The notes: generated from the sequence alone by a model not told the origin. 64,000 nucleotides of DNA from Candidatus Danuiimicrobium aquiferis (GCA_001804285.1 MHFR01000053.1:15857-79856), one strand, 5' to 3'. Counted from the stretch's first letter, positions 1,495 through 64,000 are shown. Program-made: numbers and translations.

Positions 1495-2050
1495 TTATGC
1501 GGCAGAACCGGTCAGCTGCTCAGAGCGGATACCTTGAGCGAGAACGTGAATCACAAGATCCAATGCGCTCAGCGCGTCCCGGCTTTCCACCTGAATACGG
1601 TCGTCATGCCGCCTGAGCCATTCAACGGTCTTCTTGGAAAGCGCAACGAGTGCCGCCGTGAAAAGCTGTGCGGCGGTCCCCGTCTCTTTCTCGCCGCGAT
1701 AGCTGAACGGGACTCCGTTCGCATCCTGCCCCGCGTCAAACATGAGGCCCTTGATGCCGGTTACCGCAGTCGCAATGGTAATCGCAGGGTCATTTCCGAA
1801 AAATGTTTCCGAGTTGGGAAGCATTTTATTCGTGAAAATAACCTGCATCTGTTTTCCGGTCACCGAAATAATTCTTCGCACCGGATCATCCTGATTCACC
1901 GGAATGTTATCCATCACCGGCTTCAGCGATGACGGCATTGAAATACGCGGAATAATATGAAGGTTTGAATTTGCCGCCTGGCTCGCGAAGTCATGCAATT
2001 TCCGGACCACCGATTCGGCCCTTGCAGCGGCAACTTTTCCCCCTCGCCGC
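1495..2050 (-). other. conserved C-terminal domain shared by all three giant proteins (gene 1 copy, most divergent)
   Basis: ...FTAALVALSKKTVEWLRR...LAQGIRSEQLTGSAA aligns with ...LLLAGMGLLSKKDIDG...KDALAKAA in gene 2 and ...LLAAAVVLLSKQEIAGL...EEAMKRAA in gene 3. Confidence 0.5.
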
Positions 2051-5000
2051 GACTGCGAGGACAGGTCGCGCGCTTCGGATGACATCATGGCTAAATCTTC
2101 TTCGCTGATTTTGTAATCAACCATTGTCACTTCTTTGATTGACTGAATGGCTTCGGCAAGGTCCGTCGCACGGGCGAGATTTTCTTCGGTAAACGGATCC
2201 GTAGAATCATTCATCCTGTTGATTTCACTCACAACCGCTTGCCGCAATATGGACAACGCTTCTTCGTAAGTCATTCCGGAATTTCTTAAAACTGCCAACG
2301 CTTTTGTAAAACCCGAAATGTCTGTTGCGTCCGGCGTGCGGAGGAAAACCCGGTCGATAATCTCGCTAAATTGAGTTCCGGGTTCCGAGTTTAAAGTTTC
2401 GAGTTTACCGAAAAAGGGGACAGGCAATCGCTCAACTTGAATCATATGCCTGTCCCCTTTTTGTTTGGAACCCGAAACTCGAGACCCGAAACTGTTTTCA
2501 TTGCGCACTTCCGATCTTCCTAAGTCATTATCCGACAACGGCTTAGCGCTCCATCCCAATTTCTGAAGCGCCGCCTCCGATTTTTCATCCTGAACCTTCC
2601 GGTACATCTCAACCAAACGGTCGGCGTTCGCCGGATTAAATTCAAGGAGCATCGCATTCCCTGCAGGACTCACATGAACATCCACCAATTCCCGGAGCCC
2701 GTCGAGCGGTTCATCGAATGTCGGAAGTGACATCACGTCCAGAATCCATTCAAGGCCTTTGACCAGGCTGAGAGGAGAAGGAAAAAGATTCCGGAAATTC
2801 TCGGAAGCTTGTTGAAATTGATCGAGAGGAATGTCATACAGCACAAAATGCGGCTGAAGTGAAAATTCAGGGAAGGCCCCAACCAAAGATTGATTCATGC
2901 TTTCAAGGCTTTGAAGCAATGCCTCCGGTGTCCGCAATTTCTTTCCTAATCCCCGGTAACGTTTCCCCACCAAAAATCCGTCGGGAGGAATCCGGCTGAC
3001 GAGTTTCGGCGCCCGGGCTTCGCGCAAAAGATCTTCCTTCACCAACTCAGCAAGTTTTTGAAGCACCCGGTTTCCGTTCTGATATCCAATGCCATCCTTT
3101 TTGCCGTCCCCGCTCTGAAGCCTATGATATGCGCGGCCGGCCGATTTCTTTTCTAAAATCGCGTGCTCCGCAAAATAATCCCGGACGGACAGCAACATGA
3201 GGTTGTTCATCCTTCCATGGGCTAAATGATGTTTAAACGTATCCATATCCAGCGTCTTCGTTAGGGGATCCGGGTGAGCGCGAAGCATCCCTTCTTCGGC
3301 CTGTTTCGCTAACTTTTTCTGTTCAAGCGCTTCTCTTAACTCAACCACTTTCTGACTGAAAGCCTCGGAGGATAACCGTTTGCCTTCGGGAACGATATTT
3401 CCGATCCATCCTATGGAAGAAAGGACATAATTTTGATTCCGGCCGTTTTGTTTTGCTTTTGAAAGCGCATCGTTCGCGAAGCGCAATCCCCATATATAGA
3501 ATTCATCCAGCCGGTCTTCGCGAAGCTTACCGGCCTCGTCGACCCAATAATTCGAACCGGAAAAGGGGACAGGCATATTACTCAAAAGAGAGCGATTGCC
3601 TGTCTCCTTTTCCATATCCGTCGTCTGCGTGACCAAATAATCAAGCACTTGCTTGGCGGAAACAGCGCCGAGAGAAATGGTGAGGATATTTTCAAACTCA
3701 ACTGCGAGCAACCGCCCGGACGGAAGTTTTAATTCGTTCATGAGTCGCGCAAGTTCGACGCGTTGAAAAAACGTGCTGTCAGGGGAAGATGTCATTCCCA
3801 CGGAAGTGGGAATCCAGCTGGATCCCCGCGTACGCGGGGATGACACTTCTGAGATTGCTTCGACAATATTCTGACCGCCATCTCGCAATGACACGCCGGG
3901 GCCTTGTTTCCTGACCAGCAAATTAAACCCATTTCCATGCCGGACCGCCGCGACGATATATTTCAATCCCATGGTTCGGATCATTTTCTGGAATTCCTGG
4001 ATGTCTTTTTCTTTGTAGCCTTTTAAATCAAGCCGGTAAATCGCATACCGGTTTTCAAATGCCTTTGTGTATAACCCGACCGGTTGAGAAACAAATTCAG
4101 ATCTTCCCATTTTGGGACCGGCAAACTCCAGCACCGCTTCGTCTCCGCCGACATAGCGATGGATCTGCCCTTGCATGACTTGATTCAGGATTTCCCGCGC
4201 TTCACGGTATAACGAGACATTCGCGATGATGACATCCGGCGACGGCTCGTTTCCAAGCGTTCCGAAAAAGCGTTTCCCGAGCGCATCATTCCGGGCACTT
4301 AATAGATCGGAATCGATCATTGAAAAATAAAATTGGTCAAGCGTACCGGCTTTTGCGTGCATTTTGAGTTTCTTAAGATGCTCGACTTCACCCTCCGCCT
4401 GTGATGTAAGCGGATCCGAGGATTCAGTGCGGACTTCAGCTCTGAATTGAGTTCCTAGTTCCGAGTTTAAAGTTTCGAGTTGATCTGTTTGTCCTAACCC
4501 GAAACTCGGAACTCGAAACTCTGAACTATTTTGCAGACGCACCTCTCCCCGTTTCCTTATTGGTTCTGTCACCCCACCATTGCGCATTCCCGGTGGAATA
4601 AACGCATCAACAACGCCGGCTTCCATGCCAATGTTCTGATAAAACCCGTGGTCCGGCTGAAGTGGAACGCGAAGCGTAACGACATTTTTCGGCGTCGCCG
4701 GCGCGAGATATCCTTCGTCCATTTCCCTGAAAAATAAATATTGCCAACCTGCCCCATTTTTCTGAACAAGCTTAAGAAAATTGGTTTCATTGGGATCAAC
4801 TGCTTGCAGTTCGCCTTGGGGATCCACCATGCCAAGCATTCTTAATGCCTCCCCGGCCAAAGCAAATTCAGGATAACGAAAGGATACCGGCGTCAGCATC
4901 CGATGCAAATCCCTCAGCGCTTCCACGGACCCCGCATACGCTTTCACGAAATTCATCACGCTCGGTTCGGCTGCTTCGCGCTTTTTTCCTCTTCCGTCCG

Positions 5001-8000
5001 GCCCTACATCATACTTTTCATCAATCGCTTTTTGAATGGCGCCAACTTCATTAAAGACGACGAGTACTTTTATATTCGCATGCACAAATTCTTCTATCCT
5101 CACCACTGGTTTCGCCAGCAAGCCCTCAATCAGTTTAATGCTTTCGCGCAAACTGGTAGTAAACCCCGAACTTACGCCGACTTTTAATTTACCGGCCCTT
5201 TCCCCCAAAGAAACAAGATTTCCACGGAGCTTGAGCAACTCTCTCTCGGGAGTCACAACCTGCTGCTTGAAATACGCAAAAAGCGCTTTCTCGGAAATCG
5301 CCGGATCGGCGGGCTCAAAGAGTTCGGAATCAACAGGAGCTTCTGCCGCCTTTTCCGTTTCAGAGAGGGAACCAAATCGCCGTTCGTAATTTCGCATCAC
5401 AAGTTCTTCCGCGATTTTCCAGTTGTCACGAAGCTTGAATAAAATGGTCCGCGCACGCGCGCGTTTTGCCCCGTCTTTCTTGAAAAATATGCCGATGAAA
5501 CGCCCCACCTGCGCGAATTCGCTTTCCGAAAGCCCAATGGTTTTGATCTGAAAAAATTCACGCGCTTGATTATACGCTTCACGAATAAAGCGATATTCGT
5601 CCAAACCAAGTACGTTAAACGCCGCATTAAACGAAGCCATCACCAACACTTGCCTCTTATCAGGACGAACCTGTAAACTCTCTTTCCCAATTTCCGCGGA
5701 CCGATAAAACCGGCTATACGATTCATTCAGGTTCTTCCTCAGAGCCGCTTTCCCGCTTTCAGATTTATCCAGGGCTTGATACATCGCAGGAATTTCCTGC
5801 TCTAAGTCTTTCAGAAAACGGTCAAATTGTTCTTCGGAAAAAGACAAGTCCAACGATCTCTGCTGGTTCGGCTGTTTGTATTTGCTGAGCAATTTGAAAA
5901 ATCTATCCTCCATGATAAAGACGCCTTTCGCCAATTCCACTCCGAAAGCCGGGGGAAACAATCCGGAAGGCTGCATGAGCTTCTCTGCGGGCGACCGCGA
6001 AAGAACAACACCGACCCCTCGCTGAATTTCTCCCAACTCGGGAATCTGCATCACTTGAATCAATTCCGGCGCAACAGGATTTTCCGACAAATATTGTTTT
6101 TCGGGCATCAATAAATAGGAATAGCCGGTATGTGCCATCAGCTCCGGACCCGAGAGGGGCTGGGGATACGTTTCAAGATTAACACGCAATCCGGTCTCTC
6201 GAATAGACCGGAAAAAACCGCGCTCCGGAGTGGCAATCAAATTGTCCTGCTTATCTCCGGAAACAATCCCGATCATCAGATGCGGCCCTTTCTCCGGGAC
6301 ATCGACTTTCAATAATACCGGTGCTGTATCAAACACCAACTCTTTCGAGAGTTCGCTGAGCGCGTTGTAAGCACCCACATATCTTTTATTGACCACAAGC
6401 ATTTGCATTCTCGGCATAAAACTTTCCGGTTTATACCGTTTGTTCATCGATTTGCGTGCGCTGGCGCCAAGTTTTCTCAGATTATTTTCCAAACGATTAA
6501 ATTCCGATAAAGCCACATCCCCGGAGCTTTGCGATCGTATACGATCAATCATCTCCGTGCTTTCTTTGTAAGACGCTCTGAGGCCATAACGGTCGTCTAA
6601 TCTTCCGGATTCCGGATAAATTCGCATTTCTTCACAGGCGTTTTTCAATTCTTCTACGGCTTTCGAAACCACTTCCAATTTGTCCTTGCTCACCGTGACG
6701 GACTGCGCAAAAAAGGCATCGATTGCCGTTCTTGCCTCGTCAGCATTTGCCGTGTCAAAAGTACTGCCTGCCGGAATTTTGGTCCGCACGGTGAAAACTC
6801 CGGCCGGAAATGAAAACGTTGGTTTTTCCCGTTTCGCGTCCGCAGCAGACGCCGCTTTAGCCTGTTCGAATGCTTTACGATTTAATACAAAAATATTTTT
6901 CGGCGAAATATCCGGAAGCGGAAGTTCATGCCCCATCACCAAAATTTGCCAACCCGGCGTCGCCTGAAACATTCCATCAAATCCGCTAAACCGGACCTGT
7001 TTCGATGAATCTTCAATATCGGTATAAACAAATGTTTCAAAATTCGCCCGGTAAATTTTCCCGGACGAATCAACAAGACCCATGATAAAGACCGGTTTAT
7101 CGGCTCCCAGGGTGGGGATTTCAAATCCGGGAGCACGGTACTTGATAAAAACGCTGGCGATGTGGTCTTGATACTGCCGGGTCAACGCATTATCTCCCGC
7201 CTGAAACAAATCGATGGCGCGATGATCCATAAACTGTTTGCTTTCAAATAACCACGCTGCTTCGCGGCGTGCTCCGGTCACATATTGATTCATCTGATCA
7301 AGCACTTGAATGATCTTGAAAAACGACGCATGCCCCTTTTGGTCGATCAGCTTCTGTAATGCGGCCGATGCGACCGCGAATTTTTGATCGAGAGAATCTG
7401 TAGCATTCGGATTATTTTTCCGGTGCCAGGCATTCATTTGCCCCATCGCGGTTTTTATAATTTCCAATGCGTTTTTGGGAACAGAAAAAGGCAATCCATA
7501 ATATGAATCAAATACCCTTTTCGCGACAACAGGAGCTGCGGGCGTTAAATAGTCAGAAGATTTTTCCGCTGCTTTATCTTTGTCCAATTCTAATCGCAAA
7601 TTGACACTTTGTTCAGACGCTTCAAGCCCGACGACAAAACCGATGGCTTGCATCATTTGGGCCGGTTCACTGAGCGAAATTTGCGTCACTTGAGAATCCG
7701 ACATGAAATAATCATTCCAAATGAGTGATAGCGAAGACATTCCGAGCGGCGTAGCTTCCCGATCGAACACTTGATGATCGTAAATAGAGGGACTCGCCCA
7801 TAAAATCGTGTGCATTTTCCCGTCATCAATAATTAAAAAGAGCGGCTCGGACTTTCCCTTCCCCTGCTTCGATCGCCAATAGACTAATTTTGCGACGGCA
7901 TTTTCCGGAACCTCGAGGGCGAGCGGACCGGTCAATTGTTTCGCATTCAACTCAACCACTTTATAAAAAACTTTTTGCTGTCCACGCGTTTTTGAAGAGA

Positions 8001-55644: not shown

Positions 55645-55673
55645 AGTATATACCGATTAGGGGTAAAATGCAA
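55645..55673 (-). promoter_or_regulatory. sigma70-like promoter for giant gene 2: TTGCAT-N17-TATACT
   Basis: On the minus strand: cttgcat tttacccctaatcggta tatact. The -10 lies about 40 nt upstream of the start. The architecture is the same as the gene 1 promoter. Confidence 0.45.
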
Positions 55674-55764: not shown

Positions 55765-56330
55765 TTATGCCGCACGCTTCATGGCTTCTTCGGCAGCCTG
55801 GGCGAGGACCCAGTTGAGAGTTTCGGCGAGGATATTGAATGTTTGAGCATTCTCAGCGTGGAAAGCTTGATCATCAAGTTTCCTCAGCCCGGCAATTTCT
55901 TGTTTCGACAGCAACACAACCGCCGCCGCAAGCAATCCGCCTAAATGAACTCCGCTTGTGCCAAACCGTAATCTCGTCTTCCCGTCGGCAAGCGTCGTTG
56001 CCAATGTAATTGCTTTTTCCGGCCGCGCCGCAACCGTATTTCCCGTGATCACAGCATCATAGTTTGCCGAAGGAACTGACGGAAATGTGAATTGTCCATT
56101 TCGGATCACGCCTTGTTTTTGAAGTTTGCCAATTTCCCGGCGGATCGTTGAATCAATTTTTAAACCTTGAGTCCCCGCTGATACAAATTCAAACTGGATA
56201 TTTGGATTCAATACGGCAAAATTACGGGCAAATTCAGCCAACCGCCGGATGTTCTCCGATAACTCTGCTCCTTCTAATCCCTTTAATTCATCTAACATGT
56301 TGATTTGAATCTTAACCGGATGATCGATGC
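55765..56330 (-). other. conserved C-terminal domain (gene 3 copy)
   Basis: NPNIQFEFVSAGTQ...AVITGNTVAARPEKAITLATTLADG...HLGGLLAAAVVLLSKQEIAGL...VLAQAAEEAMKRAA. Confidence 0.5.
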
Positions 56331-59300
56331 CAATCATTGCCTTAATCATTTCCCGCGCATGCCGGACGGATTCCGTGGTCATGCGCGCTAAGTCCGCCTG
56401 CAACGCCTCAACTCCGGTACCGTTTCCGGAAGTGCCGGGTTCTGGTTTCTGGAAGTCAGAACCTGGCACTTCCGGAAACGGTACCGGCCTCAAGATACGC
56501 ATGATTTTACTCATTTGCGGTCGGAGCGCTGGCCGCACAAGCCCAACCGGAATATTTTGCCGCGCATATTCTTCTTCAATCATTTTTGTCACTGACTCTT
56601 CCGTCACATCCTGTGGTTTTAAATTCAGCAATCGGCCGGTCAAAGAAGGAACAGCCGCATTCGCCTGCTTTTCGGCTTCGTCGAGAGCCTGATTGATCCA
56701 TTCCTGGATCATCTCGTTGATATCCATCGCCATGAGTCCGCTTGTCCTTGCATCTTGAAGCTGCTTCGCCAAATTTACACTGTCAACCCTTGCCGTTTGT
56801 GTAGGCCAAACCATTTCTGCAAGATCGAAAAAGGGGACAGGCAATTGCTTGCTTTGTTGTACTATGCCTGTCCCCTTTTTGAGTTCAAGGTTGCGCGCTT
56901 CGGCCCGTCCCGCAACTGACAATGGCCTCTGCTCCTTCACGGATTTAGTAACAGGCTGCAACTGTGGCCGAGGGATATCTCTTGCTTTCCACCCAATACC
57001 GGATACGCTAATCGAAAACATTGCGCCTTTCGAAATCTCGAGCACTCTCCTGGCCATGGGTGACAATGGCTGGGAATCCAGGTCAAAGGCCATACTCATC
57101 TCATTTTCTTCACCAATTCGTTTGATTTCTTCTTTTACTTTTCCCCATAAATCCGGATTTTCAGGGCTTCCGTCCGTTTTAAAGCGGACCTCATCCATTT
57201 GCACAATAATTGTTTTTCCTCCATAGATATTGGAAATTAATCTTGAAAACGCCTGTGAATATTTTTCCGTGTCGGTATAAAAGAGAACGTATTTGACCGT
57301 CTCATCAGGCAATCCGTCCTGGTTGATTAATCTTTCCTGTCCCAATTCAGGATAATCACGGTAACCAAACGGCTCTCCATCGGGTCCCACAATAACGATA
57401 CGCCTTCCGCTGTACAAAATATTTTCCGCTCCGGACAAATTCCGGAAATCATCCAAAATTGTTTTAGCATCAATTATTTCTCCACGTACCTCTGCCCTAA
57501 AATTAGTATCATCCCCACGAAAGTGGGGATCCAGCTGGATTCCCGCTTTCGCGGGAATGACAGAAGAATTTTCAAGGTTGCGCGCTTCAGAACGTCCTGC
57601 ATTTCCTTTATCGCTTTGTGGAACAGATTTGTTTGGAGCAGTAACCTCTTCAGCAGGTAACGGATTTGCCAGGTTTTCGAAGCGATCCAACTCTCCGTTG
57701 ACACCGACAAGCGCCTTGTCTAAATCTTCCATCAGCTTTTTCCGTTTCGTAATCGCATCATGAATCAGTTTTGTTTTATTGAGAAGTTCCTCGAAAGTCG
57801 TTTGGGAAAAATCGAAATCCATCGTTTTTGCTTGATGATCTTCCAATATATTTAATTCCGCAATAGTCATTTCGATCGTTTTAAAATCTCCACGAACACG
57901 CTCATTGTGTCGCTCGACTTGTTGCTCTGCTGTAAGCTTCTTCCAACGTTTATCGATAACAGCATGTAACCGCAATGTGTTTTCCCCCGTTTCGAGATAT
58001 CGATTATTCAACGCTAATATAACACGCACTTGGTCCCATAACCGTTGTTGTTCCCGAGTCAATTTATCTTCCGTCTCTTGCCCCATCACTAATTTTCCGG
58101 TAACGGACGGTTTTCGGTACTGACTTAAAAGGAATCTTGCACCGCTGATCGGCGACAGATCGGTTAAATCCATATCCGTTTCCTTAATTTCCGTTCGATC
58201 TTTTTTGAGCTTCGGAATGACACGTTCCTCGCCCTTCGCTTTCAATCGTTTAATCAACTCTTCGTAAATAGCCGGGATTTTTTCATCCGGGAGATTGGGG
58301 GTTCCGATTCTTGCCTCTTTCTTCAGTCTTCTGATCTGAGTTGATAACTCTCTCTTTTTGGAATCTAAAAGATCAATGGCTTTGGTGAGGCCAAGACTGG
58401 GTAGGTCGCCTTCCCTTTGAATCCTGTCCCTCATATTGCTAAGAATTTTTTCAAGCTCTTCTATAATACTGATCAAATTAACATCCGCCGTTTGCAGCCA
58501 ATACCGCCCTTTCCCGTTTTGAAGGAATGCCGCAAAGAAATGAGAAAATACAACGCTCAGGCGATTTTTCTCGGGTTCGCCGATATAATCCGGAAAAAGC
58601 GGAGTCACCAATGTATCGTTGATATCAAAGCTGAACAATTCTCCAAAAACATTACTCATGATCGTATTTCGAATCGCTCCGATCTGCCGGCCGACTTTTC
58701 CGGCGGCCGTTGTCAAAGTCTTAAATTTCTTTTCTTCGGGCGTTAACCGTTTTCCCGGCTCCGGCGAGCGGGCTTCGGCTCTCACAACAGTATCGTTTGG
58801 TTCTTGCCGCAACTGCGAGGACACCTGCGCACCTCGATTATTCAAAACGGGGGCAGGTTTTTGTTTCGTTAACTCAGAACCTGTCCCCGTTTTTGTGGTC
58901 GCGCTCCCCCAGACGGGCTGGTCTTGAATAAATTCATTGATTTCGTCCAGGGACCAAATCGCGTCCATCAATTCCTGCATCTCTTCCTGACTCATATTTT
59001 CAAATGTGGGGATTTCCCTCACGGCAGAAAGCATCGGAAATTGTCTTCCGATTTGCTTCCTGGCGAGTTTAATTATTTCCTGAAAATTTTCTTCTTTTAC
59101 ATTTCGCGTTTCGATTTTCCCGCCGTTATAAAATTTAAACCAATATGCAATCTGCTCGGCATATCCCGAAGGGATTTCTTTTTCCGTCTTGTATTTAAGC
59201 ACGCCTCTCCCGAGCGCAAATCCAAACGCATGGTTTGCTTTCAGCGCAAGTCTTAAGTCTTTTGAGTTTTTCCTCAATTTTTTCAAATTTTTCGCGCTTT

Positions 59301-62300
59301 TCTGTGAAATTCTGATCAATGCAGGATTCATATTTTTATCTTTAAGCCCTCTGTCGATGACCCATTCGGCCGTAGCGGAAAATGGAAAAGTTTCAACTCC
59401 CATATAAGTGACCGCCGCGGAAGGGCCTCCCCTCCTGCGGGGAATTTGTTCATCCCTTGTAAAACCTTTTGATTCAACATAGCCGATCCTTAATAAAATC
59501 TGTTCGACTCTTATTTTATATTCATCCGGAGATTTCTGATCCGTCAGCTGAACGACCGCATGAATAATCCGTTGAGCCGTAGCGACTCTTTCGTTAAGCG
59601 GAGCATTCACGTCGATTTTCAAATCCAACGCTTCATTAAGTTCAGCCTCTGTCAGCATTTGGAATTTAGTTTGAGAAACAGGAGAAACAGGGACAGACAC
59701 CGAATTTTTCCTTTCACTTGAAAATTCGGTGTCTGTCCCTGTTTTGGCATCCGGTCTCACATCAGCCGCCGGAGTACGCCCTTGCGGCGCAGGCTGTGTT
59801 AACTTTTCATGTAAAAGTAAAAATTGCCCGGCAAGCATTGCTGCCACTCCTACCATCTGCCCAAGCACAAACGTCAGGAAAAATTGAGCTCTTCGCTGGA
59901 AAAATCTTGGGAATTTAATTTTCAGAAATCCGTAAAATACAAGTGTCGCAGAAAACGCAATTAGAAATGTTTTTTCAATATTCGCCCTCAAAATCCGGCC
60001 CATCAAATCAAACTGAACAAACTGGTTCCAGATCTCATTGGCTGTTTCGGGATAAATGGCAGTAGCACCAGAAACCGCGCTCGTCGCAAGCCCAGAATAA
60101 ATAAACGTTTTGCCGATCTTTCTCTGAAATGCCCGCATCCATCTTCCTCGCTGCTTCTGGGCTTGCAAAGATTGTTGAACGCCAAACGCAGTCAACGCTG
60201 CACCCGCTATAAACGCTAAACCCGCAAACACCCGTACCTCGGCTCTTTTTTTCGGGCTTGCCACAATCGTATTAATCGGTGTTTCTCCGATTCCAAGCGG
60301 CGCACGACCTTCAACAAAAACCGTTCCTCCATCCGTCGAAACTGCCGTTTTGACTTTATTATCACGGACCCATTCTTCAAGTTTAGCTCTTAACCTTTCC
60401 ATTGAAGGCCCCGTCGCTCCCCAAAAATCAAAACCGTAAATTTCTGTTTTTACCAAATTGCCCGCATCATCAATCCCGATCACAACCCTGCGCCCCGAAC
60501 CACCCAAGAAAAGTTTCGAAAGGTCAAGCACTTGCCCGTTTTCAACAACAATTGGACCCAATTGAACGGCATCTTCGACCTGCCCTTCTGGAATCGTTTC
60601 AAGAAAAGCACGAACTCTTTCAATAAAAATTTCTCCGGTTTTCAAGGTCCCAAATATCGCTTCCGCACGCCCCGGCTGATTAAAACTCGGATTAAGCTTT
60701 CTCAAAACTTCTCCATTTCTCTTCAAATAGCCCGTCGGAAGTTTATCCCCTTCGGTTCCAAGCCGGAAATATCCGGCAGGCGCAATCGCAAACTCGCCCG
60801 GTACTGCCGGGCCTTCATTAATATCAATCCGGTACTCTTGGGTAGAAATGGCCATATTGCTTTGGCTTTCATGAACTTTCGCAAAAATATATTGAAGCAG
60901 TCCCATTCCAAAAATAAAAACAGGGGCAAATCCGAGGAAAAACCTCGCCGCCCGACTTTGTTTAAAAAATGTCCGTACATTTTCTATATAAAAGGGGACA
61001 GCGCCCTGAAAGGGCGCTGTCCCCTTTTTTACACGCACTTCCGATCGCAAAGCACCTGTTTCCCGGCTTGCAGGAACTTGCATTTCCTGGCCTGTAATCC
61101 ACCGCTGAGCTGCGAGGTCGCCACGTTTTGCTTTAGCGATGTTTCCTTTCACTTCATTCATACCTGCACGATCGAAGGCTCTTACTCCGAACGTATTCAT
61201 TAACGGAATCGTTATCCGCTCATAAACACGGATTTCAGCAGCCACATGAGTTTCAAAGTCATACTGCCCGTCCGGTGTTATCAATTGAATCCCGTTTAAA
61301 TATTCACGATAATGTTCTCCTTCATGCGATATGACATCAATCGCGCGAATGGCTTTCCCGAAATCCGTTTGCGGGCCTTCTTGATCAACATAATGTTGAT
61401 TGAGATAAACAATGCCTGTCTCAAGGTCAATCGTCCCGGGAACCTTATCCGGTAAAACACCCGCCGGCAATATTGCGACTCCTTTGACCGCCTGATAGGC
61501 TGTTTTAACCGCCTCCGGAATATTCCGCTGTTCGGTTAAGAATATGTCCAACGTTTTTGTGAAATTTTCCCCGGCTGCCAGCGCCTGTTGATGTCCCTCA
61601 AATGTTAAATTTTGAAGCAAAGAAACGCGCGCTTGAACACCTACAAATACGTCCTTTTCATTTTGGTCAATCCGGATTTCTTGTGTCGTTGTTGGCCCCA
61701 AAAACGGGCCTTGCGGCACAGCCGGAAGGAGATGGAAAGCCATGGCAAGAAGAAAACCGATCAAAAGAATGCCGGAAGCAATCGAAATCGCAAGATAAAT
61801 CCCGCCGATCACATTGGCTGTTTTGTATACTGCAACACCGATTCTCGTATTCCAAAAATTGTCAATATACGTCCGAATGCTTTCGAGGATAGACGGCGGC
61901 GCGCGTGATTCTGAAATACCCGGTTCTTCTTTCAGATATCTTCTGAAATCAGCATCAAGACGGGCTTGTGCTTCCTGAGTTTCAACGTTCAACTGTTGGA
62001 ATGCCGCATCGAATACTTTTTGAAATTTTTTTCGCTCAAAAGCCGCGGATAATTTTTGATGTTCGTCTAAAAGATAAGCAACGTCCGCTTCTCTGCCGCG
62101 CAGAAAGGCAAGTTGATATAATTGTTTTAATGTTTTTAAATTAATTCCTGCAAAATTCAGATCTTCGGCCCTCGCAAAAAACTGCGAGGACACTTGCGCG
62201 TTTCGATCAATCAAAACGGGGACAGGTTCTTGTTTCGCTAACGCAGAACCTGTCCCCGTTTTTGGCGCAATGTCGCGCTCTTCGGCGTTTTTCTTGGCAA

Positions 62301-63996
62301 CTCCAAGCAGATGGCGATAAAAATCGACATTTCGTTTAATTGCCGTTTCAACATTATTTCCATGTTCGCTTAAAATATCATTGAGACGATCAAGATTCCC
62401 GAAAAATTGATCCGAAAACCGGTAAGCGCTAAAACTTGCCTGTTCAATCTCACCGTCAAGCAATTCTTCTTCGGATGACGGCAAAAATTGAATGTTGTAT
62501 TTTTTCCCGCCGCGGGATTCGATAAACCAAGTATTCATCAAAGCAGACCGGGCCAACGGGTCCAGCATATCAACACCAGGCATATTGACTTTAACACCCG
62601 CCTTCCGGAGGGATTCAAACAGATTCGTTTTAAGTCCGGCGAGTTGTTCTTTCTTTATATCTGTTATATCGCCCGGCAGGTGAATTCTGACATCAATGTC
62701 ATCCACCAAATCCCAATTTGGCGTCCCGTCCGGTGTCAAAGTGTAACTCATCGAACCAACAATCGATAAAATCGGAACATAGCCAAACACTTTTCTTGAA
62801 TGATTTTCCAAAACCGAGACTAAATCTACATTCTCCGCACCGAATTTATCCGCCGTCAAAACGAAATTCGTTTTGACGCGGTTTTGATGAAATACTTCTT
62901 TCGTTTCCGGATCAACCAGCAATACAGGCAATGTTTCCGCTCGCACTTCCGCCCTCGATACTTTTGTCATTGCGAGACGCGATCCAAGCTCTGTCGAAAC
63001 AATCTTTATATCTGGAATTGCCGCGGCACCGATTTGTACATTGCCTCGCAATGACACGCTCCGCGCCTCAGACCGGCCAAATGCCTGTTTATAATGAAAA
63101 TCTAAAAGCTCTTTGAATTGAGCCACCCACGGCTCTTGTGACTTTCCGTAGATTTCGAAAAATAGCGTTGAAATCCTGCTTCGATTTTCCATCTCTGCTT
63201 GACGGCTGGTTAAATCATCCAAAACCGACTGAATTTCACCATACAATCTTTGCCATTTCCTTTCATCTCCGGCATGAACCGCCGAGATAAAATTTAAAAT
63301 TCCCACCGCCAATTTTCGTTGTTTCGCGGACCGGCCCATTCCGCGACGGTCTTTGATTGTGAGTCCTTCTATCTTTCCATTGGATTCCGTAATCTGTTCC
63401 GATGTCACTTCCGAAAGACTCCTTCGAGTCATCAGATTGAGGACCTCAAACAAAACCGTTTCGACCCGATTTCTCAAAGCCGCTCGGATCGATTTCCTGA
63501 CGAACGGAGCAAATAAGGAATCCTGCAGACCTGTCTCATCAGCAGGCATGACGGCCATTCGCGTCGGAAATAATCGAACTTGAATAGCCCGCAGAAGGTT
63601 TGTGTCATTTTCGTAGATGCCCGAGTCACTCAGAATTTTCAGAACTTCATCATGTATTTTGGGGGAAAATCGCGAAACACTGAGACCCTTATCGGTCAAA
63701 AAATTAAACGAATCTCTCACGGCAACACGATCTACATGATATAAATGACTTTCTCGAATCTTGGAAACCACTCCTTGAATTTTCGCTTCCACCTGCTCGC
63801 TCAATACGAACGGCCGGGAAGGAACCGGCAAACTATCGAGATGCGCTTCTATCGATTTCATGACATGCCACTTGATCACGTCAAGCGACTCATTCCAATA
63901 ATCTGCATAACGAGGGAAATACTTCCAAAATAAAAAGGCAGCTGAAAAACTGAATCCGGCTATTGCCAAAATCAAAATGTTCGTAACTTCGACCAT
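55765..63996 (-). CDS. giant multidomain, multi-TM protein (at least 2,743 aa); start at or beyond the window edge
   Basis: An 8.2-kb ORF. It has an N-terminal TM helix (ILILAIAGFSFSAAFLFW) and several internal TM helices. Its C-terminal domain is shared with genes 1 and 2. An HExxH motif is at ISHEGEHY (about 61295-61345). The frame is open to coordinate 64000. Confidence 0.8.
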   Translation of the reverse strand: MVEVTNILILAIAGFSFSAAFLFWKYFPRYADYWNESLDVIKWHVMKSIEAHLDSLPVPSRPFVLSEQVEAKIQGVVSKIRESHLYHVDRVAVRDSFNFLTDKGLSVSRFSPKIHDEVLKILSDSGIYENDTNLLRAIQVRLFPTRMAVMPADETGLQDSLFAPFVRKSIRAALRNRVETVLFEVLNLMTRRSLSEVTSEQITESNGKIEGLTIKDRRGMGRSAKQRKLAVGILNFISAVHAGDERKWQRLYGEIQSVLDDLTSRQAEMENRSRISTLFFEIYGKSQEPWVAQFKELLDFHYKQAFGRSEARSVSLRGNVQIGAAAIPDIKIVSTELGSRLAMTKVSRAEVRAETLPVLLVDPETKEVFHQNRVKTNFVLTADKFGAENVDLVSVLENHSRKVFGYVPILSIVGSMSYTLTPDGTPNWDLVDDIDVRIHLPGDITDIKKEQLAGLKTNLFESLRKAGVKVNMPGVDMLDPLARSALMNTWFIESRGGKKYNIQFLPSSEEELLDGEIEQASFSAYRFSDQFFGNLDRLNDILSEHGNNVETAIKRNVDFYRHLLGVAKKNAEERDIAPKTGTGSALAKQEPVPVLIDRNAQVSSQFFARAEDLNFAGINLKTLKQLYQLAFLRGREADVAYLLDEHQKLSAAFERKKFQKVFDAAFQQLNVETQEAQARLDADFRRYLKEEPGISESRAPPSILESIRTYIDNFWNTRIGVAVYKTANVIGGIYLAISIASGILLIGFLLAMAFHLLPAVPQGPFLGPTTTQEIRIDQNEKDVFVGVQARVSLLQNLTFEGHQQALAAGENFTKTLDIFLTEQRNIPEAVKTAYQAVKGVAILPAGVLPDKVPGTIDLETGIVYLNQHYVDQEGPQTDFGKAIRAIDVISHEGEHYREYLNGIQLITPDGQYDFETHVAAEIRVYERITIPLMNTFGVRAFDRAGMNEVKGNIAKAKRGDLAAQRWITGQEMQVPASRETGALRSEVRVKKGTAPFQGAVPFYIENVRTFFKQSRAARFFLGFAPVFIFGMGLLQYIFAKVHESQSNMAISTQEYRIDINEGPAVPGEFAIAPAGYFRLGTEGDKLPTGYLKRNGEVLRKLNPSFNQPGRAEAIFGTLKTGEIFIERVRAFLETIPEGQVEDAVQLGPIVVENGQVLDLSKLFLGGSGRRVVIGIDDAGNLVKTEIYGFDFWGATGPSMERLRAKLEEWVRDNKVKTAVSTDGGTVFVEGRAPLGIGETPINTIVASPKKRAEVRVFAGLAFIAGAALTAFGVQQSLQAQKQRGRWMRAFQRKIGKTFIYSGLATSAVSGATAIYPETANEIWNQFVQFDLMGRILRANIEKTFLIAFSATLVFYGFLKIKFPRFFQRRAQFFLTFVLGQMVGVAAMLAGQFLLLHEKLTQPAPQGRTPAADVRPDAKTGTDTEFSSERKNSVSVPVSPVSQTKFQMLTEAELNEALDLKIDVNAPLNERVATAQRIIHAVVQLTDQKSPDEYKIRVEQILLRIGYVESKGFTRDEQIPRRRGGPSAAVTYMGVETFPFSATAEWVIDRGLKDKNMNPALIRISQKSAKNLKKLRKNSKDLRLALKANHAFGFALGRGVLKYKTEKEIPSGYAEQIAYWFKFYNGGKIETRNVKEENFQEIIKLARKQIGRQFPMLSAVREIPTFENMSQEEMQELMDAIWSLDEINEFIQDQPVWGSATTKTGTGSELTKQKPAPVLNNRGAQVSSQLRQEPNDTVVRAEARSPEPGKRLTPEEKKFKTLTTAAGKVGRQIGAIRNTIMSNVFGELFSFDINDTLVTPLFPDYIGEPEKNRLSVVFSHFFAAFLQNGKGRYWLQTADVNLISIIEELEKILSNMRDRIQREGDLPSLGLTKAIDLLDSKKRELSTQIRRLKKEARIGTPNLPDEKIPAIYEELIKRLKAKGEERVIPKLKKDRTEIKETDMDLTDLSPISGARFLLSQYRKPSVTGKLVMGQETEDKLTREQQRLWDQVRVILALNNRYLETGENTLRLHAVIDKRWKKLTAEQQVERHNERVRGDFKTIEMTIAELNILEDHQAKTMDFDFSQTTFEELLNKTKLIHDAITKRKKLMEDLDKALVGVNGELDRFENLANPLPAEEVTAPNKSVPQSDKGNAGRSEARNLENSSVIPAKAGIQLDPHFRGDDTNFRAEVRGEIIDAKTILDDFRNLSGAENILYSGRRIVIVGPDGEPFGYRDYPELGQERLINQDGLPDETVKYVLFYTDTEKYSQAFSRLISNIYGGKTIIVQMDEVRFKTDGSPENPDLWGKVKEEIKRIGEENEMSMAFDLDSQPLSPMARRVLEISKGAMFSISVSGIGWKARDIPRPQLQPVTKSVKEQRPLSVAGRAEARNLELKKGTGIVQQSKQLPVPFFDLAEMVWPTQTARVDSVNLAKQLQDARTSGLMAMDINEMIQEWINQALDEAEKQANAAVPSLTGRLLNLKPQDVTEESVTKMIEEEYARQNIPVGLVRPALRPQMSKIMRILRPVPFPEVPGSDFQKPEPGTSGNGTGVEALQADLARMTTESVRHAREMIKAMIGIDHPVKIQINMLDELKGLEGAELSENIRRLAEFARNFAVLNPNIQFEFVSAGTQGLKIDSTIRREIGKLQKQGVIRNGQFTFPSVPSANYDAVITGNTVAARPEKAITLATTLADGKTRLRFGTSGVHLGGLLAAAVVLLSKQEIAGLRKLDDQAFHAENAQTFNILAETLNWVLAQAAEEAMKRAA
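56826..56880. repeat. hairpin-A element in gene 3, in frame
   Basis: cgaaaaaggggacaggcaattgcttgctttgttgtactatgcctgtccccttttt. Confidence 0.6.
57509..57564. repeat. family-C element in gene 3, opposite DNA orientation to the gene 1 copies, in frame (encodes SVIPAKAGIQLDPHFRGDD)
   Basis: atcatccccacgaaagtggggatccagctggattcccgctttcgcgggaatgacag. Confidence 0.6.
58800..58895. mobile_element. composite: ctgcgaggacac-type motif plus hairpin-A variant (aaaacgggggcaggttt ... cagaacctgtccccgttttt), in frame. A near-duplicate is at 62180-62263.
   Basis: 58801 ..gcaactgcgaggacacctgcgcacctcgattattcaaaacgggggcaggtttttgtttcgttaactcagaacctgtccccgttttt versus 62185 ..aaaactgcgaggacacttgcgcgtttcgatcaatcaaaacggggacaggttcttgtttcgctaacgcagaacctgtccccgttttt. 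Confidence 0.55.
59684..59744. repeat. hairpin-A-like variant with extended arms (gaaacagggacagacaccgaat ... attcggtgtctgtccctgtttt), in frame
   Basis: 22-bp perfect arms with a 17-nt loop. Confidence 0.5.
60990..61030. repeat. hairpin-A-like variant (aaaaggggacagcgccc tgaaa gggcgctgtcccctttttt), in frame (encodes KKGTAPFQGAVPF)
   Basis: 17-bp arms with a 5-nt loop. This is the strongest stem of the family. Confidence 0.55.
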
Positions 63997-64000
63997 GATA

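Follow-up and report, generated by a model that had tools for sequence, protein, structure and literature searches.

The 64,000-nt stretch of DNA analyzed here (the window) belongs, according to deposited names and taxonomy, to Candidatus Danuiimicrobium aquiferis, a groundwater bacterium of the Omnitrophota from the Rifle aquifer. It covers most of three real giant genes arranged in tandem (g1, g2, and g3), whose products comprise 13,117, 4,766, and 9,320 aa (~82 kb in total). With moderate confidence, we infer that they represent a real giant-gene family encoding an exported, membrane-tethered multi-module surface protein. Conserved cleavable-looking signal peptides, lipoboxes, and a ~14-fold depletion of cysteine fit such a surface or envelope reading.

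Three Giant Genes in Tandem

The sequence-only reading described three consecutive minus-strand ORFs with spacers of 455 bp (g2-g1) and 157 bp (g3-g2), which is exact (Table 1). Its third ORF is a part of the gene: g3 covers 55765-63996 in the window, and the codon upstream is ATC and not a stop, so that the gene is cut by the window end. Gene calls on two ENA contigs (133,649 and 49,390 bp) give the full g3 as 9,320 aa. For g2 (deposited as OGW81558.1 / UniRef100_A0A1G1KT66), gene callers favor the ATG at 55604, with a Shine-Dalgarno-like AAGGGG 7 nt upstream.

Scored by the codon usage of neighboring normal genes, the ORF frame ranks first in 67 of 67 segments of 900 nt (43 of 43 for g1 alone). 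The window is 99.98–100% identical to four independent ENA assemblies and the NCBI scaffold, both gene junctions included. These five assemblies stem from different samples and assemblers, are all short-read, and agree over up to 32.7 kb; since they reproduce the ORFs at this identity, the ORFs are not misassemblies. Nucleotide repeats account for 6% of the window and are at most 207 nt long, except for one 464-nt stretch of g1/g2 head homology, and every copy inside an ORF lies in a stop-free frame.

Table 1. Features of the giant-gene locus, in window positions.
Feature	Position	Strand	Evidence or remark
g1, giant gene, 13,117 aa, GTG start	1495..40848	-	ORF list, translation; equal length in ENA gene calls
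g2, giant gene	41304..55607	-	4,766 aa from ATG at 55604; 4,767 aa from TTG at 55607
g3, 3' 8.2 kb (last ~2,745 aa), rest beyond window	55765..64000	-	No stop upstream of 63996
g1 head: signal peptide aa 1-40 (...NNVYA↓Q) and EreA/ChaN/TraB/Tiki-like module aa ~41-885	38194..40848	-	
g2 head: signal peptide (...NFVFA↓Q) and EreA/ChaN/TraB/Tiki-like module aa 5-770	53298..55607	-	39% identical to g1
g1 TehB-like SAM-dependent methyltransferase, aa 1965-2110	34519..34956	-	Pfam PF13649/PF08241/PF03848; PDB TehB 4dq0 E = 3e-7
g1 interior module common to g2, aa 2259-2892	32173..34074	-	Sequence alignment
g1 internal twin-arginine lipoprotein signal peptide, PTRRRFFKIAAVFAGLGVSGC, Cys2280	34009..34074	-	Conserved in g2 copy
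g1 cyclic-nucleotide-binding domain, aa ~2995-3058	31675..31866	-	Pfam PF00027, E = 5.7e-7, 29.8 bits, above gathering score
g1 weak sigma-70/ECF-like region, aa ~3267-3523, tentative	30280..31050	-	NCBIfam TIGR02937 E = 1.7e-5, below cut-off
g1 shikimate-dehydrogenase-like Rossmann domain, aa 4016-4254	28087..28803	-	PDB 4k28 E = 1.6e-18; NCBIfam NF009201 E = 8e-26, below cut-off
g1 second internal Tat-lipoprotein signal, MRDIKHTTRRTFLIKTAAYFGLAGFVGAC, Met4311 to Cys4339, then Pro-rich linker	27832..27918	-	
g1 Upf1/IGHMBP2-like SF1 helicase, aa 7711-8260	16069..17718	-	AAA_11 E = 1.5e-23, AAA_12 E = 1e-22; PDB 4b3f E = 2.4e-18; TIGR00376
g1 C-terminal tail, last 120 aa, ...ALVALSKK...VLAQGIRSEQLTGSAA, then stop	1498..1857	-	Alignment and shuffle z-scores
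g2 copy of interior module, aa 2550-3203	45999..47960	-	Tat-lipobox (Cys2581) and HEFEH at 2987
g2 Tat-lipobox signal, NRRTFMKYAGYAGGLFGLVISGC, Cys2581	47865-47936	-	
g2 second internal lipoprotein signal, MKQPGPKGLRGIGFAMLSAVAAILPLAAGC, Met3284 to Cys3311	45675..45758	-	
g2 SAM-dependent methyltransferase, aa ~4052-4236	42900..43454	-	Pfam PF08241 E = 9.5e-13; PDB 8ys9/1xxl
g2 C-terminal domain, last 330 aa, ...KDALAKAA, then stop	41307..42296	-	28% identity to g3
g3 NAGPA phosphodiester-glycosidase-like domain	60391..60789	-	Pfam PF09992, E = 1.3e-7, 32.4 bits, above gathering score
g3 C-terminal domain, last 330 aa, ...EEAMKRAA, then stop	55768..56757	-	Alignment, shuffle test
g1 promoter-like site TTGCAT-N17-TATACT	40889..40917	-	Ends 40 nt ahead of start codon
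g2 promoter-like site TTGCAT-N17-TATACT	55645..55673	-	Ends 40 nt ahead of ATG
Two long palindromic terminator-like structures, g2-g1 spacer	40984..41280	-	RNA fold -138 kcal/mol, z = -6.5, 0/100 shuffles as stable
Bidirectional intrinsic-terminator-like hairpin (family H) directly 3' of g1 stop	1423..1478	.	dG -30.6 kcal/mol, U-run
Family H hairpin, second copy, 3' of agmatine deiminase gene	59-112	.	dG -24.8 kcal/mol, U-run
In-frame family H hairpin inside giant ORF	2408..2464	.	One of at least 11 copies
Other in-frame family H copies	3556-3614, 15872-15928, 22617-22672, 34250-34307, 39857-39914, 40007-40066, 40552-40611, 56826-56882, 58843-58898, 62212-62267		

Conserved Ends and a Variable Middle

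The ~880-aa head has the fold and the conserved His-Glu-Arg-His residues of the EreA/ChaN/TraB/Tiki hydrolase superfamily. In g1 these are H128, E162, R598-D599, and GGFH623-626, which are kept in 8–9 of 9 sequences. The closest folds include the ChaN lipoprotein and the effectors HopBA1 and RRSP. An N-terminal module common to g1 and g2 had been noticed before and is clearly real (g1 aa 9-884 vs. g2 aa 5-770, E = 3e-166, 39% protein identity), but the ~85% nucleotide identity ascribed to it applies only to a single 62-nt patch, with 64–74% over stretches of 89–465 nt. At the other end, all three genes share a tail ending ..AA. The ~180-aa domain proposed there has to be redrawn: g2 and g3 are similar over ~330 aa (28% identity, E = 2e-20), whereas in g1 the similarity is limited to the final ~120 aa, with shuffle z-scores of 8.1 for the L044 tail (a relative), 5.0 for g3, and 1.9 for g2. 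The g3 tail contains a hydrophobic helix ~60 aa before its end; its AF2 model is poor (pLDDT 55) and gave no significant Foldseek match.

The head module opens at least 45 other long Omnitrophota ORFs (14 genome loci and 34 from metagenomes), and all named homologues as well as 14 of 14 genome loci are Omnitrophota MAGs. Head-bearing ORFs exceed the 10-kb flank (~3,800 aa or more) at nearly every locus where the contig permits, and 33 of 34 in the metagenome set run off the locus. L044 is a complete relative of 3,991 aa with both head and tail, and the suggested layout of conserved ends and variable middle holds at the family level. Tandem giant genes recur in relatives (L023, L026, L050, and contig MHFT01000064.1).

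The chains have a long middle that is specific to the lineage. Most of it defies annotation, although enzyme-like domains are scattered along it. The cNMP sensor, the SF1 helicase, and the methyltransferases named by the sequence-only reading are among the real domain matches, as are TPR repeats. Its combination of nucleic-acid enzymes and proteases is nevertheless thinner than claimed. In g1, ~1/10 of the sequence falls into domains recognizable by Pfam/NCBIfam; in g2 and the g3 part, the share is a few percent. The call of "proteases" goes back to HExxH motifs (5 seen vs. ~0.4 expected), with no peptidase family match even at E ≤ 10, and the "kinase-like fold" comes down to a single marginal match (E = 0.005). 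Among the recurring modules, the lipobox/HExxH module stands (29–32% identity between the g1 and g2 copies, E = 1e-70), whereas most others are peptides encoded by short dispersed DNA repeats. In the g1 copy, the Tat-lipobox is joined by a second amphipathic hydrophobic helix and by HEFQH at 2671, which has a Glu 29 residues past its second His; apart from a fragment of g1 itself, no homologue was found among 1.84 billion representatives. RTX repeats and LPXTG motifs are absent, with two chance GGxGxD motifs in 20,627 aa.

Proposed Export and Membrane Tethering

At the N-terminus of both g1 and g2 lies a conserved Sec-type signal peptide, with predicted cleavage at x-[Y/F]-A↓[Q/E]. The h-region and the cleavage motif are conserved across g1, g2, and P0001-P0003. 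The N-terminal charges are R10 and K14 ahead of the h-region and acidic after it. Furthermore, g1 and g2 carry four complete internal lipoprotein signal peptides, two of which have a Met at the expected precursor N-terminus (g1 M4311 and g2 M3284). Pro-rich linkers, as had been noted, follow two lipoboxes; at Cys3311 of g2, HEAQH at 3497 also follows. Four of the 13 window cysteines lie in these signal contexts (~0.07 expected), three with twin-arginine motifs. Cysteine is scarce throughout, both in the window (13 of 20,627 aa vs. 1.12% in the flank) and in the giant ORFs across the family (85 of 132,087 aa, 0.064%, vs. 818 of 92,331, 0.886%, in neighboring genes), and exported proteins are known to exclude it (PMC2823432). 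For the putative membrane anchoring of all three proteins stated earlier, g1 and g2 offer few hydrophobic segments besides their N-terminal signal peptides, and the g3 N-terminus lies outside the window.

Each chain would be translated whole and then threaded out through Sec, so that most of it, the hydrolase head included, would form a multi-module coat beyond the cytoplasm. The membrane tethers would be the internal hydrophobic and lipobox segments, and possibly the tail. Like other giant proteins of the Omnitrophota, for which such roles have been proposed, the coat might serve to remodel the envelope or to make contact with other cells. As for the origin of the genes, in-frame fusion of once-separate exported genes would fit the two internal signals that start with Met and the repeat clusters that flank domain borders; short palindromic repeats inserted in frame, within linkers and loops, may have added further length.

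Several observations run against export. The methyltransferases, the shikimate-DH-like fold, the SF1 helicase, the cNMP-binding domain, and the sigma-70-like region are normally cytoplasmic and need SAM, NAD(P), ATP, or cNMP. From its N-terminal signal up to the first Tat-lipobox inside the chain (aa 2259), g1 has no strongly hydrophobic segment, and thus the orientation of a lipoprotein signal (N-in, C-out) conflicts with an exported upstream segment. Internal lipoboxes are missing from 27 other family members over the first ~4,000 aa, and no secretion-system genes were found within 10 kb downstream of the locus or upstream of the relatives; the neighbors are housekeeping genes. The hairpins inside the ORFs (see below) also count against this explanation.

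These cofactor-dependent domains, the paucity of strong TM segments, and the cytoplasmic upstream segment that a Tat-lipobox requires could instead indicate a scaffold on the cytoplasmic face, in which the N-terminal hydrophobic segment is an uncleaved anchor and the chain is mostly a cytoplasmic multi-enzyme or regulatory platform with short exposed loops. Such a protein would resemble the "TM-only / multi-enzyme metabolic cluster" class of Nielsen and Lui, and 46% of Omnitrophota giants are counted as TM-only in the literature. We consider it unlikely, however: cysteine is depleted relative to neighboring, largely cytoplasmic proteins, the N-terminal charges and the conserved cleavage site fit a cleavable N-in/C-out signal, lipoboxes make sense only on the outer face, and the folds closest to the head include exported or secreted proteins.

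Distinctly improbable is a delivered effector array analogous to MARTX toxins, whose conserved head and tail would mediate both export and translocation and whose middle enzymes would act in a prey or host cell after proteolytic release. The conserved ends and variable middle, the scarcity of cysteine, and the resemblance of the head to HopBA1 and to RRSP, itself a MARTX effector, are compatible with delivery, as are the cytosolic cofactors of the middle domains (SAM, ATP, and NAD(P), present in a prey or host cell) and the predatory or episymbiotic lifestyle proposed for Omnitrophota. Yet RTX repeats are lacking, neither a cysteine-protease autoprocessing domain nor type I or other secretion genes were found nearby, type I substrates are not characterized by N-terminal Sec signals, ~90% of the sequence contains no recognizable enzyme, and nothing points to a host of Ca. 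Danuiimicrobium aquiferis.

Promoter-Like Sites and Hairpin Repeats

A promoter and/or terminator had been proposed for each spacer. Promoter-like sites are present in both, identical and at equal distance from the start, and a similar site lies upstream in 9 of 35 related loci (~1 expected). Terminator-like structures occur in the g2-g1 spacer, whereas the g3-g2 spacer is unstructured according to RNA folding.

In the flank, family H hairpins sit where genes truly end (4 of 4 intergenic), and at least 11 lie inside the ORFs (-22 to -42 kcal/mol, with U-runs), where the copies in g1 and the g3 part always encode ...PVPF/PVPV....; given so many strong terminator-like structures, full-length transcription is not assured. 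They raise the idea of a polyprotein or fused operon, built from earlier genes joined in frame, that is never one chain, owing to transcripts truncated at hairpins, internal starts, or signal peptidase II cutting at the internal lipoboxes. The complete internal signal peptides, two with an initial Met, and the repeat clusters at domain borders point the same way, and the literature leaves cleavage of giant proteins undecided. Nevertheless, this reading is highly improbable. That the frame stays open through 39 kb, with more than 20 repeat insertions, speaks for the importance of reading on from the upstream start into the downstream parts. The TTGCAT-N17-TATACT motif is restricted to the two spacers; none precedes an internal signal. 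Compared with homologues, three hairpins of the g1 head (low pLDDT) stand out as insertions, clearly placed in loops of a conserved domain and not former spacers. Outside the Ca. Danuiimicrobium aquiferis genome, internal lipoboxes and A5-stem-T5 hairpins are almost absent.

Chimeras from repeat-driven misassembly are scarcely conceivable: although the assemblies available are short-read throughout, dispersed repeats lie inside the ORFs, and the NCBI scaffold has N gaps within g1, the five assemblies agree across both junctions, the repeats are short and few, codon usage is coding-like in every segment, 13,117 stop-free codons by chance are negligible, and such long ORFs also occur in relatives from dozens of other genomes, with Nanopore genomes confirming giant ORFs in the phylum.

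Comparison With Known Systems

Giant ORFs in Omnitrophota have been published since 2023 (PMC10066038; bioRxiv 10.1101/2023.11.21.568195 and 10.64898/2026.06.07.730766), and the locus therefore adds a member to a known class. The three genes belong to this class, in agreement with the earlier remark that their scale is seen only in few giant-gene lineages; a family with a common head and tail is not singled out in the literature searched. Most published giants have TM helices or signal peptides, and a part in surface functions or predation has been suggested for them. Of the initial comparison with polymorphic effector or surface-protein cassettes, the surface part fits the exported multi-module protein favored here. 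A polymorphic-toxin cassette is not supported, as no same-strand small ORF follows the genes and their C-termini are conserved, whereas polymorphic toxin systems have a variable C-terminal toxin followed by a small immunity gene.

Intact Giant Genes in Agreeing Assemblies

The best-supported reading of g1, g2 and g3, three consecutive minus-strand giant genes, is that they encode envelope proteins of many modules, exported and tethered to the membrane, which form a family within the giant-ORF phenomenon known from the Omnitrophota. The ORFs are intact. With the agmatine deiminase gene g0 they make up the full set of minus-strand ORFs in the window that reach 300 aa, four in all, and the giant-ORF limits given by the sequence-only reading, with spacers of 455 and 157 bp, were recovered exactly. 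Gene callers start g0 at the ATG at 1191 (355 aa) and not at the TTG at 1260. Because the codon upstream of 63996 is ATC, g3 continues past the window end, and the "at least 2,743 aa" first read for its product proved to be part of 9,320 aa. With eleven normal genes from the neighbourhood as the codon-usage reference, the best-scoring of the six frames is that of the ORF in 67 of 67 windows of 900 nt. GC content stays within 43-51% over the whole window and GC skew is negative throughout.

The window matches four ENA assemblies and NCBI scaffold MHFP01000071.1 at 99.98-100% over up to 32.7 kb, both gene junctions included, with seven inter-assembly differences, six of them clustered at one contig end. 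The g2 product recurs residue for residue on nine contigs. Nucleotide repeats make up 6% of the window, and dispersed repeats reach at most 207 nt. Since the assemblies, all of them short-read, agree across the junctions and the repeats are short and few, misassembly of the giant ORFs is very unlikely. The products of g0 and g2 have identical counterparts among the proteins of Omnitrophica bacterium RIFCSPLOWO2_12_FULL_44_17 / Ca. Danuiimicrobium aquiferis (taxid 1801832; in UniProt, Candidatus Danuiimicrobium aquiferis, phylum Candidatus Omnitrophota), and the giant proteins are already deposited in GenBank and UniProt as hypothetical proteins of RIFCSPLOWO2_12_FULL_44_17 and sister MAGs. On MHFP01000071.1 (L005 1-10000), 53 N lie inside g1, which is called there only as a 171-aa fragment; hence, public annotation partly hides this species' giant genes.

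Features of the giant-gene locus and related sites (nucleotide positions in the window unless a protein or another locus is named)
Feature	Position	Strand	Detail
g0, agmatine deiminase	124-1260	minus	PF04371 (PAD_porph), E = 8e-107; directly downstream of g1
g1	1495-40848	minus	13,117 aa, 39,354 nt
g2	41304-55607	minus	4,767 aa, or 4,766 aa from ATG at 55604; 14.3 kb
g3, part	55765-63996	minus	full product 9,320 aa, ~28 kb, on longer public contigs
Promoter-like motif, g1	40889-40917	minus	
Promoter-like motif, g2	55645-55673	minus	
Internal signal, g1	PTRRRFFKIAAVFAGLGVSG-C2280		lipobox VSGC, strict
Internal signal, g1	M4311-RDIKHTTRRTFLIKTAAYFGLAGFVGA-C4339		lipobox VGAC, relaxed
Internal signal, g2	NRRTFMKYAGYAGGLFGLVISG-C2581		lipobox ISGC, strict
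Internal signal, g2	M3284-KQPGPKGLRGIGFAMLSAVAAILPLAAG-C3311		lipobox AAGC, relaxed
Hairpin family H, intergenic	59-112, 1423-1478		directly 3' of g0 and g1 stops
Hairpin family H, in g1	2408-2464, 3556-3614, 15872-15928, 22617-22672, 34250-34307, 39857-39914, 40007-40066, 40552-40611		
Hairpin family H, in g3	56826-56882, 58843-58898, 62212-62267		
Double hairpin	3790-3847, 15933-15988, 22674-22729, 24312-24355, 57505-57563		
Double hairpin, L005	7318-7369, 17703-17759		first = window 3790 copy, inside g1
Further repeat family	2011-2078, 35045-35114, 50452-50554, 52696-52807, 58769-58823		read as R-A/S-E-A/V-R peptides
Further repeat family	2366-2437, 4425-4551, 15813-15901, 27213-27316, 48828-48912		
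Repeat-derived peptide site	L030 75-1142		TsaD-like gene, related metagenome contig
Repeat-derived peptide sites	P0003, P0004, P0005, P0001, near g1 aa 509-579		same loop
TehB-like SAM methyltransferase	g1 aa 1965-2110		
cNMP-binding domain	g1 aa ~2995-3058		
Sigma-70-like region	g1 aa ~3267-3523		weak
Shikimate-dehydrogenase-like Rossmann domain	g1 aa 4016-4254		
TPR repeats	g1		
Upf1/IGHMBP2-like SF1 helicase	g1 aa 7711-8260		
Methyltransferase	g2 aa ~4052-4236		
NAGPA-like domain	g3		glycosidase-like

Conserved Head and Common Tail

An N-terminal module common to g1 and g2 had been read, with nucleotide segments at about 85% identity. The module (here, head) stands, with g1 aa 9-884 and g2 aa 5-770 aligning at 39% identity (E = 3e-166); its DNA is 64-74% identical over stretches of 89-465 nt and reaches 85% only in a single 62-nt patch. 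At both N-termini an n-region with positive charge leads into an h-region that is conserved (..AFFVLISFTLLN.. in relatives), followed by a small-x-Ala site (VYA-Q and VFA-Q in g1 and g2; GYA-E, TYA-E and SYA-Q in homologues). They are predicted Sec-type signal peptides with a conserved cleavage motif.

The EreA/ChaN/TraB/Tiki superfamily is defined by conserved His, Glu, Arg and GxxH catalytic-site residues. The head shares its alpha/beta fold. Modelled with AF2, g1 aa 1-900 averages pLDDT 62, with a core at 70-90 and low-confidence stretches that coincide with inserted repeats. H128, E162, R598-D599 and GGFH623-626, kept in 8-9 of 9 aligned head sequences, would supply the His/Glu/Arg/GxxH site. 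A structural neighbour is the RRSP effector domain 5w6l. In contrast to known members of the superfamily, the head has no sequence-level match in Pfam or the PDB: the family HMMs PF01963, PF04187 and PF05139 leave it unmatched, no Pfam family appears at E <= 0.01 in aa 1-1000 of g1 or g2, and its profile gives chance-level matches only against PDB sequences. Moreover, the domain is split by a helical insertion of ~400 aa and fused to thousands more residues, and its hydrolase activity is putative.

At the other end, a C-terminal domain of about 180 aa had been assigned to all three proteins. A common tail with an Ala-Ala end is indeed present, at other lengths: g2 and g3 resemble each other over ~330 aa (28% identity, E = 2e-20), while the likeness of g1 is limited to its last ~120 aa (shuffle z = 5.0 against g3 and 1.9 against g2). 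The tail of L044, a complete 3,991-aa relative, scores z = 8.1, 7.3 and 5.3 against g1, g2 and g3, respectively. Every tail has a hydrophobic helix followed by SK(K/Q) before the Ala-Ala end. Structure modelling gave a poor tail model (pLDDT 55) with Foldseek matches at TM ~0.2, which were disregarded. The tail profile found nothing above chance among PDB sequences, and NCBIfam/Pfam sorting-signal models (PEP-CTERM, LPXTG, T9SS CTD and others) did not match it. Methyltransferases are the only families found over the C-terminal 743-767 aa of g2 and g3 (Pfam/NCBIfam); for the last 1,117 aa of g1, Pfam likewise gives no family beyond these, and LPXTG is absent from the giant ORFs. A word-index homology search with the C-terminal 400 aa of g3 returned zero matches, the query protein itself included.

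Interior Domains

HMM searches on slices of the giants recovered the methyltransferases, the cNMP-binding domain and the SF1 helicase seen by the sequence-only reading, with roughly 10% or less of residues Pfam-positive. Two of its other proposals were not confirmed. The kinase-like fold comes down to one marginal g2 match (E = 0.005), and the proteases to five HExxH motifs around which Pfam has no peptidase family at E <= 10; the motif at g1 aa 6470, inside a TPR repeat, is probably due to chance. Among the recurring interior modules, g1 aa 2259-2892 and g2 aa 2550-3203 are copies of one module (29-32% identity), which has HEFxH and a Glu 29 residues past the second His, that is, gluzincin spacing. 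What likeness is left between the genes comes from dispersed DNA repeats, read out as short peptides. Run with HMMER over all 1.84 billion representative proteins, the profile of this interior module returned only a 6,248-aa g1 fragment, leaving stand-alone lipoprotein relatives unsupported. Its matches to PDB sequences are at chance level, and a word-index search with the g1 copy gave zero matches, again including the query itself.

Several interior domains depend on cofactors and normally work in the cytoplasm. They are the main counter-evidence to an envelope location and favor a scaffold on the cytoplasmic face, with the giant chains mostly on that side of the membrane. We consider this rather unlikely and prefer the exported envelope family.

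Cysteine Exclusion and Internal Lipoprotein Signals

Cysteine is almost excluded from the three ORFs, with 13 in 20,627 residues (0.06%) compared to 1.12% in eleven flanking genes, and the g3 part in the window has none in 2,743 residues. The giant ORFs of the family at 45 loci contain 0.064% Cys against 0.886% in their neighbours, a ~14-fold depletion. This is a strong compositional signal on where the giant proteins reside.

Four of the 13 cysteines close complete internal lipoprotein signal peptides, where shuffles predict ~0.07 such contexts. Two lipoboxes are strict ([LVI][ASTVI][GAS]C), and all four signals have the K/R-rich n-region and the h-region (KD > 1.5) of lipoprotein signals. 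They lie 2,260-4,340 residues into the chain rather than at a precursor N-terminus; two begin with Met where a precursor would begin, and two are followed by a Pro-rich linker. Conservation of the first pair (g1 C2280 and g2 C2581) is well above the interior-module average, and the g1 and g2 signal copies are kept despite ~30% overall identity. Measured against the motif (S/T)-R-R-x-F-L-K before an h-region, three of the four contain a candidate twin-arginine consensus: TRRRFFK (g1 2261), TRRTFLIK (g1 4318) and NRRTFMK (g2 2559). No other RRx-hydrophobic motif in the giants has a hydrophobic stretch after it. The signals also pose a puzzle. Between its N-terminal signal and aa 2259, g1 lacks any strongly hydrophobic stretch, and an exported upstream part therefore conflicts with the N-in/C-out orientation required of a lipoprotein signal.

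Dual Sec-Tat membrane proteins offer a parallel: Sec handles their N-terminal part, and a twin-arginine motif with a hydrophobic helix comes only deep inside the chain. In documented examples no further helix follows the Tat-dependent one, which exports a cofactor domain at the C-terminus (Keller 2012, PMC3471235; Tooke 2017, PMC5449189). The giants, in contrast, have thousands of residues after the helix, which closes with a lipobox Cys, and their Tat dependence is putative.

The four signals might be genuine Lgt/LspA (perhaps Tat) sites, and the giants polyproteins that are inserted piecewise and cut at the internal lipoboxes into several lipid-anchored products. We judge such processing unlikely. 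If it did occur, the signals would give an Omnitrophota giant protein concrete cleavage points for the first time, and such genes would arise through in-frame fusion of exported-protein genes. Internal lipoboxes as a general family trait were rejected, with none in the first ~4,000 aa of 27 other members. At this locus the four signals are candidate processing sites.

In-Frame Palindromes and Repeats

Hairpin family H has the form AAAAAGGGGACAGG-loop-CCTGTCCCCTTTTT with a U-run (dG -22 to -42 kcal/mol); with its A-run, GGGGACAGG stem and T-run it looks like a set of bidirectional intrinsic terminators. Besides the copies behind g0 and g1, the flank has it at another three gene ends, and four of four copies there are intergenic. 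At least 11 copies nevertheless lie inside g1 and g3, each in a stop-free and Cys-free frame reading ..KG(DR/TG)..PVPF/PVPV... Compared with g2 and five homologues, the g1 head has three of these copies, and further peptides of repeat origin, as insertions; in the same loops those homologues hold other repeat-derived insertions. Domain borders are flanked by repeat clusters. Since 12 of the 13 terminator-like hairpins (A-run/T-run) found within ORFs belong to this genome, they were rejected as a general family trait. A 39-kb gene with a dozen of them is a natural experiment in tolerating such hairpins.

Rickettsia palindromic elements and MITE-like repeats are established in-frame gene insertions (PMC1779305, PMC10969869), and the repeats of the giants are insertions of the Rickettsia-palindromic-element type. 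In both cases short palindromes sit in frame in loops of conserved proteins, leave the ORF unbroken and also occur between genes. Here, however, they have a bidirectional-terminator form (A-run, GC stem, T-run), are concentrated in the giant genes of one genome and always use the same frame (..PVPF..).

A second repeat family, a 56-nt double hairpin TGTCATTCCCGCGGAAGCGGGAATCCAGCTGGATCCCCG...CGGGGATGACA (ATTCCC-N8-GGGAAT type), is likewise in frame in the giant ORFs, with one copy between normal genes. Furthermore, the repeat-derived peptides ..RGAKRRSNPQSEIAS..LPRNDE.., ..VILSEAKDL.. and ..HSERSEESI..LRHAQDDK.. have been inserted without a frame change into a housekeeping gene and into head homologues. 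As insertions thus occur in a TsaD-like gene and in a loop of head homologues, in-frame palindromes seem common in these Omnitrophota, beyond the giant genes too. Rfam at gathering thresholds found no RNA family in the window.

Promoters and Spacers

TTGCAT-N17-TATACT precedes both g1 and g2, ending exactly 40 nt from the start codon, with a common CAACTTACG box further upstream. It recurs once on the coding strand, in a weaker form, and a similar site lies upstream of 9 of 35 related genes, where ~1 is expected. A generic promoter/terminator scan yielded nothing above shuffle expectation, its sigma-70 component missing this motif, and the internal signal peptides have no promoter of the shared type in front of them. 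Of the two spacers, g3-g2 shows no structure, whereas g2-g1 (40984-41280) folds into a pair of long palindromes, ~107 and ~150 nt (z = -6.5), which may represent compound terminators or MITE-like elements. The palindromes overlap with two plus-strand ORFs (78 and 94 aa) that are probably spurious.

Family and Genomic Context

Degenerate patterns from an alignment of six heads located 14 loci in species-representative genomes and 34 more in JGI metagenomes, two collections from which the window's own species is absent. All homologues and genome loci that carry a name are Omnitrophota MAGs. Where the contig allows, head-bearing ORFs fill the whole 10-kb flank (at least ~3,800-4,100 aa), and what look like stops in two cases are scaffold gaps. 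L044 is complete with head and tail, and P0001 is a stand-alone head protein of 954 aa. A giant gene directly followed by a head-bearing giant gene also occurs at L023, L026 and L050, and contig MHFT01000064.1 has two head-bearing genes. Two distant head homologues are fused to an intein/Hint domain (P0005; PF14890) and to metalloenzyme/iPGM domains (P0006; PF01676, PF06415); what lies downstream of the head is therefore variable.

Relatives have housekeeping genes upstream; the neighbours identified there are rodA/PBP2, a gene that we take from its sequence to be LarB-like, TsaD, RNase PH or a transposase. Secretion genes were seen neither near relatives nor in the window flanks, and conserved secretion-gene synteny was rejected. 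The series mreB-mreC-(mreD)-PBP2-rodA lies directly upstream of a head-bearing giant gene at L008/L006 (3741-8902), L009, L010, L014, L028 and L035, and P0001 occupies the same position downstream of this cell-elongation operon.

Proposed Function

In the envelope family that we favor, each giant chain would be translated full length, exported by Sec, located outside the cytoplasm and tethered to the membrane, where it may act in cell-cell contact or envelope remodelling. Giant proteins of Omnitrophota are recognised yet unexplained, and the g1-g3 locus gives a tractable family: the recurring, foldable head offers testable catalytic residues, and the common tail and the complete, "small" L044 aid study. 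The classification of the giants is unaffected by these features; several open questions become directly testable.

Comparison With Known Systems

MARTX toxins are very large proteins with conserved N- and C-terminal regions around a mosaic of enzyme modules that need cytosolic cofactors. The giants are alike in size, conserved ends, mosaic middle and cofactor-needing modules, but lack RTX/glycine-rich repeats (two, zero and zero GGxGxD motifs in the three ORFs), a cysteine protease domain and type I secretion genes. Sec-type signals and housekeeping flanks set them apart from RTX/type I proteins in general, LapA-like adhesins included. The same normally cytoplasmic, cofactor-dependent domains would suit an array of delivered effectors, which we hold to be quite improbable. 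In Rhs/CDI polymorphic toxins, a variable C-terminal toxin domain is followed by a cognate immunity gene. Large tandem proteins with common N-terminal regions are a shared trait, and the sequence-only reading had been reminded of polymorphic effector cassettes. In the giants, however, the C-termini are the conserved part, the spacers contain no same-strand ORF of at least 25 aa, and neither immunity genes nor Rhs/YD or haemagglutinin repeats are present.

Giant ORFs of Omnitrophota have been described by Seymour et al. 2023 (PMC10066038), West-Roberts et al. 2023 (bioRxiv 10.1101/2023.11.21.568195) and Nielsen and Lui 2026 (bioRxiv 10.64898/2026.06.07.730766) as sparsely annotated, biased toward signal peptides and TM segments, ambiguous in topology and with cleavage points unknown. 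The Archaeovorin type combines GT, glycosyl hydrolases, methyltransferases, peptidases and NUDIX, usually with SecA_DEAD and tens of TM helices (West-Roberts 2023). Like the 39,678-aa protein of Velamenicoccus archaeovorus, the giants here are predicted membrane-associated proteins of mixed enzyme-like content with methyltransferases, for which a surface coat is proposed. Of the Archaeovorin set they have only methyltransferases and the NAGPA-like domain; SecA_DEAD, GT, NUDIX and peptidase Pfam matches (C39 and S8 among the domains sought) are absent. The Dockerin type has multiple dockerin and TSP3 repeats (West-Roberts 2023), and neither PF00404 nor PF18884 was found in any slice. Accordingly, membership was rejected for polymorphic toxins, RTX/type I proteins, Archaeovorin and Dockerin, each for want of a defining feature.

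The searchable parts of the three papers contain no mention of "cysteine" exclusion, and those of West-Roberts 2023 and Nielsen and Lui 2026 none of the head, tail, side-by-side arrays, internal lipoboxes, in-frame palindromes, or twin-arginine, polyprotein or terminator features. Hence, within the searchable literature, the family definition and its sub-features may be unreported.

With ORFs > 20 kb in an Omnitrophota genome as the definition (Seymour 2023, PMC10066038), g1 (39,354 nt) and g3 (~28 kb) are giants, while g2 alone (14.3 kb) falls below the threshold. In the catalogue of Nielsen and Lui 2026, 94% have a signal peptide and/or TM helices, with few or no Pfam domains; the N-terminal signals of g1 and g2 and the 5-7 TM-like segments in the g3 part, both from hydropathy and motif inspection, and the Pfam-poor sequences agree with this. 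The three are smaller than the headline giants of the phylum (40-147 kaa), and their available flanks have no type II/IV secretion genes. They resemble Omnitrophota giant ORFs in phylum, size (14-39 kb), scattered divergent domains with methyltransferase among the commonest, N-terminal signal peptide, internal hydrophobic segments and near lineage-unique sequence, and the nearest published classes are the multi-enzyme and the Pfam-poor signal-peptide-plus-TM giants.
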